DNA from: a virus
Taxonomy: Duplodnaviria > Caudoviricetes
Virus record (IMG/VR): IMGVR_UViG_3300035101_000015
Span: 81,843-145,842 of that record
Length of the DNA: 64,000 bases
Reading direction: 5' to 3' (one strand)
Positions 1 through 810 of this stretch are shown in pieces (position 1 is the first letter of the stretch; each line of letters opens with the position of its first letter). Under the pieces are notes generated by a model. It had not been told where the DNA came from. It was given only the letters and a program-made list of their open reading frames with translations, and ran no database searches. Both the position numbers and the translations under genes were made by a program.

Positions 1-810
1 GTCCTCTGGCGCGCCGGCCTGGACCTTGAGCATCTTGGAGGTGGCCCTGGTGAAGGCGTCACCCTCCACTCGGTCGAACTTCTTGCCCAGCGTGAGCTCG
101 GTGGCATCGGGTCGGACCTCCGAGGCCATCAGGGTGTCCCGCACGTACGCCTCGGCCGCCTCCCTGTCCTTGGGCGCGAACTTGCGGTCGGCCTTGAAGA
201 AGCGCTCGAGCGCGGTACCGGCGCCACGCGCATTCTTGTTGGCCTCGAGGACGTCCTTGCCCCATTGCCGCTCGAGCGTGTCATCGTCGACCCCCATCGC
301 CTTCATGATGGGGTAGACGGGGATGCTCTTCGACTTCCCCCGCTCCATAAGGAAGGTCTTCTTCTCAGGATTGAAAGTGATGTCGAATGCCGGACGGTTG
401 GCGATGTTGAACCTGGTCTCGAGCTCACCACTCTGACGGCGTCGGGTGTAGACCCCTGGCTTGAGCTGCCACTGGTTGTCAGCCTGGTATTCCTGACCGC
501 CCACGATGTAGCTGTAGCGACGGGTGAGCACGGGCAGCTCCGCCACCTTCATCCGCTGAGTGGTCTCCTTACCTGTCTTGTGGTCCTTGAGGGCCATGGT
601 GGCGTACACCGGTCGGCTGAAAGTGCCGCCCTCCACCTTGGCCTTGTGCTGACCCTCGATGTCATCGGAGTCGGCTTTCTCCATCTGCACGTCCAGGTCC
701 TTCAGGACGAGCGACTGCTCTCGTCCCTCGACCGGGAAGTGGGAGCGGATTCCTTCCAGCGCCCGCTCCTTGAAATCCGCAAACGCCTCGTCGTGGTCCA
801 GGTACGCCAT
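1..810 (-). CDS. Phage-encoded DNA-directed RNA polymerase beta-subunit-like protein, N-terminal part (runs off the left edge; not in the ORF track)
   Basis: Manual translation from ATG at 810 is open for 270 codons to position 1: MAYLDHDEAF...HFPVEG...AKVEGGTFSRPVYATM...KVAELPVLTRRYSYIVGGQEYQADNQWQLKPGVY...FDITFNPEKKTFLMERGKSKSIPVYPIMKAMG. These blocks parallel, in order, the RpoB N-terminal blocks recalled as FPI, [40 protein letters not shown] and LDFEFDPKD..KLPATIILRALN. Confidence 0.8.
   Translation of the reverse strand, partial: MAYLDHDEAFADFKERALEGIRSHFPVEGREQSLVLKDLDVQMEKADSDDIEGQHKAKVEGGTFSRPVYATMALKDHKTGKETTQRMKVAELPVLTRRYSYIVGGQEYQADNQWQLKPGVYTRRRQSGELETRFNIANRPAFDITFNPEKKTFLMERGKSKSIPVYPIMKAMGVDDDTLERQWGKDVLEANKNARGAGTALERFFKADRKFAPKDREAAEAYVRDTLMASEVRPDATELTLGKKFDRVEGDAFTRATSKMLKVQAGAPED

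Follow-up and report, generated by a model that had tools for sequence, protein, structure and literature searches.

A gene for a single-chain, bacterial-type beta-beta' RNA polymerase in a family of large tailed phages

Results

An RpoB-like frame at the window edge

The stretch of DNA analysed here (the window) comprises 64,000 nucleotides, bases 81843-145842, and forms the final 64 kb of the 145,842-bp IMG/VR viral record IMGVR_UViG_3300035101_000015. The record is linear, is estimated to be 78 % complete and carries genes for a major head protein, a terminase and a tail sheath, in keeping with the phage origin already proposed for it. At the left edge of the window begins a gene for an RNA polymerase of the cellular, multisubunit type: an open reading frame (ORF) on the minus strand that runs uninterrupted from an ATG at position 810 to base 1, 270 codons in all, and is still open where the window ends. 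There is no competing frame of similar quality on the coding strand of this interval. The frame is missing from the ORF track because it appears only in listings that include ORFs running off the source sequence.

An earlier sequence-only reading had claimed that such an unlisted frame carries RpoB-like N-terminal blocks in the right order, far more divergent than those of a cellular RpoB, and both claims are borne out. The 270 residues by themselves match RpoB N-termini in the PDB, the best match being residues 33-196 of a cyanobacterial beta subunit (E=1.2e-8), and of the 33 PDB matches listed with E-values up to 10, 30 are RpoB chains and all keep the correct order. A profile built from 14 N-termini of the family described below drew only RpoB chains from the PDB, 43 distinct sequences in all with a best E of 4.9e-15, and hhalign scored the region against Salmonella RpoB at 92.7 % (E=4e-7). 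The divergence is evident from single-sequence Pfam searches of the 270 residues, which gave sub-threshold matches only (Rpb2_2, E=0.11), and from an identity to Salmonella RpoB of about 27 % over the whole beta module. The PHROGs match of the region is phrog_24349, a family of unknown function. The RpoB-like frame at 810..1 is real and its resemblance to RpoB is far above chance.

One chain carries both beta and beta'

The gene extends 5,651 bases past the left edge of the window. In full it is one ORF of 2,153 codons (record 76191-82652, minus strand; L005:10191-16652 (-) in our locus numbering), which holds the remainder of beta and a beta' with the NADFDGD motif. The gene is RpoB-like at its start, as had been proposed, but it does not encode a separate beta subunit, since the frame in the window is the N-terminus of a single-chain beta-beta' fusion. 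The beta module occupies residues 1 to about 1008 and the beta' module residues from about 1014 to 2153, and the two are joined by the short junction VEKKGH (1009-1014).

Pfam domains from both large subunits are found along the chain with significant scores: Rpb2_3 at residues 339-401 (E=1.6e-9), Rpb2_6, the beta catalytic barrel, at 552-903 (6.9e-66; 223.3 bits against a cut-off of 23.4), Rpb1_2 at 1303-1446 (2.4e-27; 96.7 bits against 25.3) and Rpb1_5 at 1723-2045 (1.2e-17). Rpb1_1 at 1014-1240 is under its cut-off (29.1 versus 39.7). The beta' part aligns with residues 246-1249 of Streptomyces beta' (E=3.7e-104), and its identity to Salmonella RpoC, like that of the beta module to RpoB, is about 27 %. 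Conserved motifs could be located in beta (GYNFEDG at 635, GRHGNKG at 779, with a shortened flap tip) and in beta' (clamp helices at about 1220-1270, NADFDGD at 1420-1426, the bridge helix at 1735 and the trigger loop at 1877). In an AlphaFold model of residues 900-1345 the confident part spans about 995 to 1270 and covers the junction, where two strands flank the fusion point; the model matches the N-terminal clamps of bacterial beta' chains (E about 1e-14).

The enzyme is compact. Alignment with Salmonella RpoB and RpoC revealed neither the proteobacterial inserts beta-SI1, beta-SI2 and beta'-SI3 nor the N-terminal zinc (Zn) ribbon of beta' (E. coli C70/C72/C85/C88), whose segment is deleted and where the family consensus has no cysteine. 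The whole protein contains only four cysteines (1771, 1833, 1840 and 1843), and these are the ligands of the second, C-terminal Zn site of beta', which is intact. In the same alignment the rifampicin pocket carries, in E. coli numbering, Q513R, F514V, H526S, R529S, S531T and I572T; the enzyme is therefore predicted to be rifampicin-insensitive. Taken together, the conserved features make it almost certain that the gene encodes a catalytically competent, single-chain, bacterial-type RNA polymerase core in which a complete beta is joined to a complete beta'.

A conserved family with split cultured relatives

Searching viral contigs for relatives yielded 33 loci with identities of 37-59 %, and in all 33 the polymerase is a single uninterrupted ORF, mostly of 2,060-2,200 amino acids. 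A collection of 5.8 billion proteins contains at least 120 clusters at 54-77 % identity with Rpb2 and Rpb1 domains in one protein, on contigs of up to 200 kb; nearly all are about 2,130-2,215 amino acids long, apart from intein-bearing longer forms and one fragment. When representatives of 50 %-identity clusters were searched exhaustively with beta' as query, every full-length protein among the best 150 matches had a beta' starting near residue 1000, down to 33 % identity. Overall the fused layout recurs in more than 150 protein clusters. The catalytic residues, A1421-D1426 among them, and the junction residues K1011 and G1013 are invariant in a 26-sequence alignment. The record and each of eight relatives carry one polymerase gene per genome.

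Some relatives have longer in-frame polymerases (2,498-3,259 amino acids) in which intein-like inserts interrupt the most conserved sites: in beta after TPE|G, within NADFDGDQ|M and in the trigger loop at FH|SGG. These inserts lie at L017:11183-12226, 15308-16360 and about 17708-18958, L019:14192-15724, L032:5384-6916 and L024:12977-14104. Several begin with Cys and finish with N before S, T or M, and related clusters carry LAGLIDADG and intein Pfam domains.

The cultured relatives, Vibrio phages D69, D148 and D181 and Salmonella phage Arash, encode a 1,525-residue protein comprising beta and the N-terminal part of beta' (beta-beta'N) together with a 606-residue protein for the remainder (beta'C). 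The two parts lie at L004:11944-16521 and 21292-23112 in Arash and at L041:8956-13539 and 14178-16007 in D69. The break falls near residue 1520 of the fused protein, which the Salmonella RpoC alignment places at about E. coli beta' residue 575, a position that we take to be close to the split site of cyanobacterial and plastid beta'. In D181 and D148 a homing endonuclease is annotated beneath the match.

No fused copy was found in 185,579 species-representative prokaryote genomes, the best of 596 bacterial loci being 25-30 % identical, and so there is no prophage or other hint of a host. In a FastTree phylogeny of concatenated beta and beta' (2,005 columns), a quick tree that was midpoint-rooted and built from sequences other than those of archaea and of the phage lineage mReC discussed below, 25 bacteria from 13 phyla stand on one side of a long branch, and the fused proteins form one clade with those of Arash and D69 (support 99). 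Cobetia phage Carin-5 falls outside this clade and sits on a long branch of its own. As far as these sequences go, the tree shows no more than that the polymerase gene was not recently captured from one of the sampled phyla. Carin-5 encodes sigma, beta (1,083 amino acids) and beta' (927 amino acids) in three adjacent genes (L129:3541-10366) that lie beside replication genes and outside any structural block; its subunit sizes resemble those reported for mReC.

A sigma factor and the search for other subunits

A weak Sigma70_r4 match drew attention to a 276-residue ORF at record positions 4785-5615 (minus strand). Taken singly, the protein is sub-threshold in Pfam, and Sigma70_r2 was not detected directly in the record. 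A pattern scan of viral contigs for close relatives found none, and homologues with 35-45 % identity came from searching related genomes; the gene is present in five of six near-complete relatives. Residues 75-244 of a four-sequence profile match SigA 199-380 with regions 2-4 in order (E=5.6e-10), RpoS chains are matched as well, and the predicted fold resembles that of sigma factors (SigB, sigmaS and SigA). Comparison of the profile with Arash Gp10 by hhalign gave 99.5 % (E=1e-22). By sequence and predicted fold the protein is a divergent sigma70-family factor homologous to Gp10. The second sigma factor of Arash (gp196) has no counterpart in the record.

The N-terminal domain of alpha was found neither in the record nor in eight relatives, three of which are complete with terminal repeats, and omega was not found in this record, the only sequence that the omega search covered. 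The fused enzyme might still make use of host alpha.

Gene position and the virion of a relative

A 38-kb minus-strand block holding the terminase, the major head protein (a match to phrog_2522) and a sheath-like protein begins with the polymerase gene. The order polymerase, 420-residue gene, 727-residue gene, terminase recurs in relatives as distant as 39 % identity, in all cases where the DNA retrieved extends far enough. The 420-residue neighbour has only a weak Pfam match (Phage_base_V), and the genes just downstream of the polymerase have no PHROGs match. The polymerase gene of Arash comes after that for the portal protein, and the gene for the sigma factor Gp10 lies among structural genes. 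Mass spectrometry of purified Arash virions detected Gp206, the larger polymerase protein, more than any other (3,516 spectra, 100 % coverage) and above the major capsid protein; Gp216, the smaller, gave 1,210 spectra and Gp10 gave 467 (PMC10585845). The authors suggest early transcription for the virion polymerase and also say that abundant enzymes may be carried over (PMC10585845).

Two classes of promoter-like motif

Counts of motifs rest on our own gene calls, which gave 146 genes and left 6 % of the record intergenic. GATAAG occurs 14 times in the record, and eight of these occurrences are intergenic where 0.9 would be expected. Each of the eight is itself on the plus strand and precedes a plus-strand gene or operon, with YGCAAR 16-18 nucleotides further upstream in five cases; four of the eight lie in the window (874, 5054, 15316 and 20182; Table 1). 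The bipartite form GCAAR-N16-18-GATAAG was found 17 times in five related genomes, compared to once for the reversed control. Its 17-nucleotide geometry is compatible with a sigma70-family protein whose -10 specificity has changed, and the core enzyme using this class would be the phage polymerase. The sequence-only reading had linked the polymerase to GATAAG, a link that is plausible and has been strengthened, the motif being intergenic, bipartite and conserved in relatives and the phage having a sigma factor of its own.

Other promoter-like elements look host-like. The polymerase gene is preceded by a putative promoter with a -35 box and a TAnnnT element (Table 1), whose boxes and spacing are kept in five of six aligned relatives. 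When the intergenic region upstream of the polymerase gene was aligned for six phages, the only strongly conserved blocks were CTTATCCC and CCTTGCA, which together are the bipartite promoter of the opposite strand. The two divergent promoter candidates (window 826-879) share one -35 box, and both layouts are conserved in relatives. A second class of motif, TGnTAnnnN, ends exactly 6 nucleotides before the start codon of eight genes, where its histogram peaks; instances are at window positions 15976, 42207, 58366 and 63467 and record positions 12204 and 35632. This placement is typical of leaderless mRNAs made from extended -10 promoters and suggests a host that uses such mRNAs; the class again has a host-like appearance.

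The divergent operon upstream of the polymerase gene contains a gene for an AAA_5 (MoxR-like, weak match) ATPase at 2310-3497 followed by a gene of about 480 codons at 3494-4933, both conserved in the four closest relatives. Elsewhere in the window a perfect GC-rich palindrome, CCATGCTAGGCCCGT...ACGGGCCTAGCATGG, is present in two copies about 150 bp apart (about 8690-8712 and 8839-8861), within an 843-bp gene-free stretch near tRNA-like genes.

Table 1. Coordinates of the polymerase gene start and of promoter-like elements in the window
Feature	Position	Strand	Basis or context
Start of the beta-beta' fusion gene: 270 codons covering the beta protrusion/lobe region	1..810	-	ORF listing, translation, PDB and Pfam matches
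Putative polymerase-gene promoter, TTGCAG (855-850)-N18-TACGCT (831-826), then 15 nucleotides to the ATG at 810	826..855	-	Host-like -35/TAnnnT layout
Candidate bipartite phage-type promoter, TGCAAG (851-856)-N17-GATAAG (874-879)	851..879	+	Heads divergent operon, genes from 1162
Bipartite motif copy 2, TGCAAA-N17-GATAAG	5031..5059	+	Upstream of Ro60/Y-RNA unit
Bipartite motif copy 3, TGCAAG-N18-GATAAG	15292..15321	+	40 nucleotides before gene at 15361
Bipartite motif copy 4, CGCAAG-N16-GATAAG	20160..20187	+	76 nucleotides before gene at 20263

Discussion

A virion-delivered early polymerase as the preferred reading

The polymerase gene heads the structural block and its Arash homologues are abundant in virions; from this we infer late synthesis, packaging and early transcription. 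The polymerase and the sigma factor would be made late, packaged and delivered with the DNA, and after delivery they would start early transcription at the TGCAAR-N16-18-GATAAG promoters of the non-structural plus-strand operons. Host-like TAnnnT and extended -10 promoters, one of them before the polymerase gene itself, would drive the late and structural genes. Fusion of the two large subunits would guarantee their delivery at 1:1 and would make the alpha platform unnecessary. Such a scheme parallels those of N4 and the crAss-like phages. On the whole a virion-delivered, sigma-dependent early RNA polymerase is the most likely reading and we regard it as probable. That alpha and omega are dispensable to the enzyme and that the sigma factor of the phage guides it to TGCAAR-N16-18-GATAAG promoters seems to us likely to a similar degree, and the balance tips slightly toward the division of labour in which a packaged polymerase and sigma factor serve early genes while late genes use host-like promoters.

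That transcription is independent of the host, as the sequence-only reading had claimed, is not established. Host-like TAnnnT or extended -10 elements are found at many structural genes and at the polymerase gene itself, and late expression may well need host RNA polymerase.

Several points weigh against virion delivery and against its component parts. This phage and all fully fused members of the family are known from their genes alone. The Arash virion proteome lists 116 proteins, reductases and helicases included, and its authors allow for carry-over (PMC10585845). With the record 78 % complete, absences from it are weak evidence, although the complete relatives are also without alpha; for omega, the search was confined to this record. 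The sigma and polymerase genes are 70 kb apart, and the sigma factor might bind the host core instead of that of the phage. Each promoter class was matched to its enzyme by analogy, and the host-like promoter of the polymerase gene fits late packaging and an early, non-virion role alike.

This last point leads to the strongest rival, in which the polymerase does its work outside the virion. Made early by host RNA polymerase, it would take over the GATAAG operons at middle or late times together with the phage sigma factor, and its presence in Arash virions would be carry-over of the kind that the Arash authors mention (PMC10585845). The conserved host-like TTGCAG-N18-TACGCT before the gene agrees with such a role, as does the single polymerase per genome, whereas phiKZ-like phages need a separate virion set. 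However, the gene is stably first in the structural and packaging block in all relatives, Gp206 tops the Arash virion proteome with complete coverage and exceeds the major capsid protein, and the gene for Gp10 is also among structural genes. We consider a non-virion role a serious candidate but an unlikely one.

Is the fused polymerase already described?

It could also be argued that the fused polymerase simply belongs to the published mReC lineage (Weinheimer and Aylward 2020, PMC7481178). The two are of the same broad kind: both come from tailed phages and have RpoB- and RpoC-like genes that COG and Pfam profiles recognise, that can be aligned with their cellular counterparts and that branch outside the bacterial radiation, well away from every bacterial phylum. 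Yet the mReC subunits are encoded, in the table rows compared, by separate genes for beta (960-1,377 amino acids) and beta' (900-1,370 amino acids), whereas here there is one chain. The mReC phages have a T4-type capsid (PF07068/VOG11186) and terminase, the gene is not assigned to a virion block and no sigma factor is discussed (PMC7481178); the head protein here is of another family, and PF07068 was not matched in our 78 %-complete record. The metagenomes of the 33 related contigs are absent from those listed mReC contigs with which they were compared, and six older ones, compared by identifier, are absent from all of its RNA polymerase tables. Carin-5, a stand-in for mReC with adjacent genes for sigma, beta and beta', branches apart from the fused clade, but its branch is long. 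As judged from the published mReC descriptions, the fused family differs from that lineage, and membership in it appears improbable.

Which core does the sigma factor serve?

Still less probable, in our estimation, is that the phage sigma factor redirects host RNA polymerase to the GATAAG promoters, in the manner of T4 gp55 or the SPO1 sigmas, leaving the fused enzyme to use some other, unrecognised factor or none. Many phages do encode sigma factors for the host core, and the beta' clamp helices are conserved in host-type and phage enzymes alike, so that sequence alone cannot tell which core is bound. But the sigma factor and the fused polymerase co-occur in the family and both are present in Arash virions, and for a bacterial-type core whose clamp helices and flap are intact, no other route to a promoter is known.

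An artefact (contaminating bacterial rpoBC, a chimeric assembly or a decaying pseudogene) has nothing in its favour beyond the general risk of metagenomic contigs, and we dismiss it: identity to any of the 596 bacterial loci is 25-30 %, the same ORF and phage gene order recur in dozens of independent assemblies, and the catalytic residues are invariant.

Comparison with other polymerases

The nearest relatives are the enzymes of Arash (Gp206 plus Gp216, with sigma Gp10; PMC10585845) and of Vibrio phages D69, D148 and D181, which are homologous at about 30-32 % identity over the whole length. As here, beta continues directly into the N-terminal half of beta', NADFDGD included, the gene lies in the structural region, the enzymes belong to the same clade and the Arash sigma factor is homologous. 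They differ in that the C-terminal third of beta', with the bridge helix and trigger loop, is a separate protein of about 606 residues encoded 0.6-4.7 kb downstream, whereas here all is in one chain. The Arash paper calls Gp206 'beta' and does not discuss the fusion (PMC10585845).

The closest analogue for how the fused enzyme may work is gp66 of the crAss-like phage phi14:2, likewise a single chain (about 2,180 amino acids) with both double-psi beta-barrels (10.1101/2020.03.07.982082). It is packaged and translocated and transcribes the early genes in a rifampicin-resistant manner, and host polymerase transcribes the middle and late genes (10.1101/2020.03.07.982082). However, gp66 is about 8 % identical to cellular enzymes and carries DFDID as its motif; a connector domain separates its two barrels, and the fold of about 1,600 of its residues is of unknown type, whereas the fused enzyme is a near-complete bacterial beta and beta' set head to tail, with NADFDGD and its own sigma factor. 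Its NADFDGD motif and its match to bacterial beta' at E=3.7e-104 exclude a crAss-type identity. The virion and non-virion RNA polymerases (vRNAP and nvRNAP) of phiKZ- and AR9-type phages (PMC7598289, PMC7824862) are also phage enzymes of multisubunit type without alpha and omega, and one set is packaged in the virion for early genes. In those phages beta and beta' are each split into two or three polypeptides, there are two paralogous sets per genome and there is no sigma factor; we rejected a phiKZ-type identity on the grounds that here there is one fused gene, one set and a sigma factor.

Natural beta-beta' fusions are found in bacteria, in the rpoBC of Helicobacter and Wolbachia, and join the C-terminus of beta to the N-terminus of beta' in the same order as here. 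Severinov and colleagues reportedly tethered the E. coli beta and beta' subunits in 1997, and such a fusion is said to be compatible with activity. The bacterial fusions keep two alpha subunits, omega and the Zn ribbon, have the full size of about 2,900 amino acids, and are cellular enzymes rather than virion cargo.

Significance

We found no description of a full beta-beta' fusion in a phage in the literature; full-text searching gave only the crAss paper, although the components were noticed in the Arash paper. Phage polymerases of cellular type have been known in three forms. Those of phiKZ-like jumbo phages are fragmented and have no sigma factor, that of crAss-like phages is a single chain diverged beyond recognition, and the mReC enzymes, for which metagenomes are the only source, are encoded by two genes. 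The fused family constitutes a fourth form, a compact and clearly bacterial beta-beta' in one chain with its own sigma factor and bipartite promoter. It spans hundreds of phage lineages with genomes of about 145-200 kb, and at least two cultured systems hold the related split form (Arash on Salmonella and D69 on Vibrio).

More tentatively, the fusion itself may be an adaptation to delivery, an idea that we put forward as somewhat doubtful. In this picture a minimal bacterial-type holoenzyme, consisting of one beta-beta' chain plus sigma, with only four cysteines and lacking alpha, omega and the Zn ribbon, would travel in the capsid and pass through the tail as one polypeptide chain. It would then refold inside the host with no need of an assembly platform, and it would read promoters whose -10 element had changed from TAnnnT to GATAAG. 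If true, this would be the smallest self-sufficient, sigma-dependent RNA polymerase of cellular type, and it would add to N4 and crAss/phiKZ a third way, independently arrived at, of delivering transcription with the virion.

If the enzyme is active alone with its sigma factor, it would provide a minimal model of sigma-dependent initiation without alpha, omega or the Zn ribbon, and a portable orthogonal transcription system that is likely to be rifampicin-insensitive. It would also allow a test of whether large folded enzymes pass through a contractile tail, and would serve studies of the deep history of RNA polymerase as a marker that is both long and alignable.

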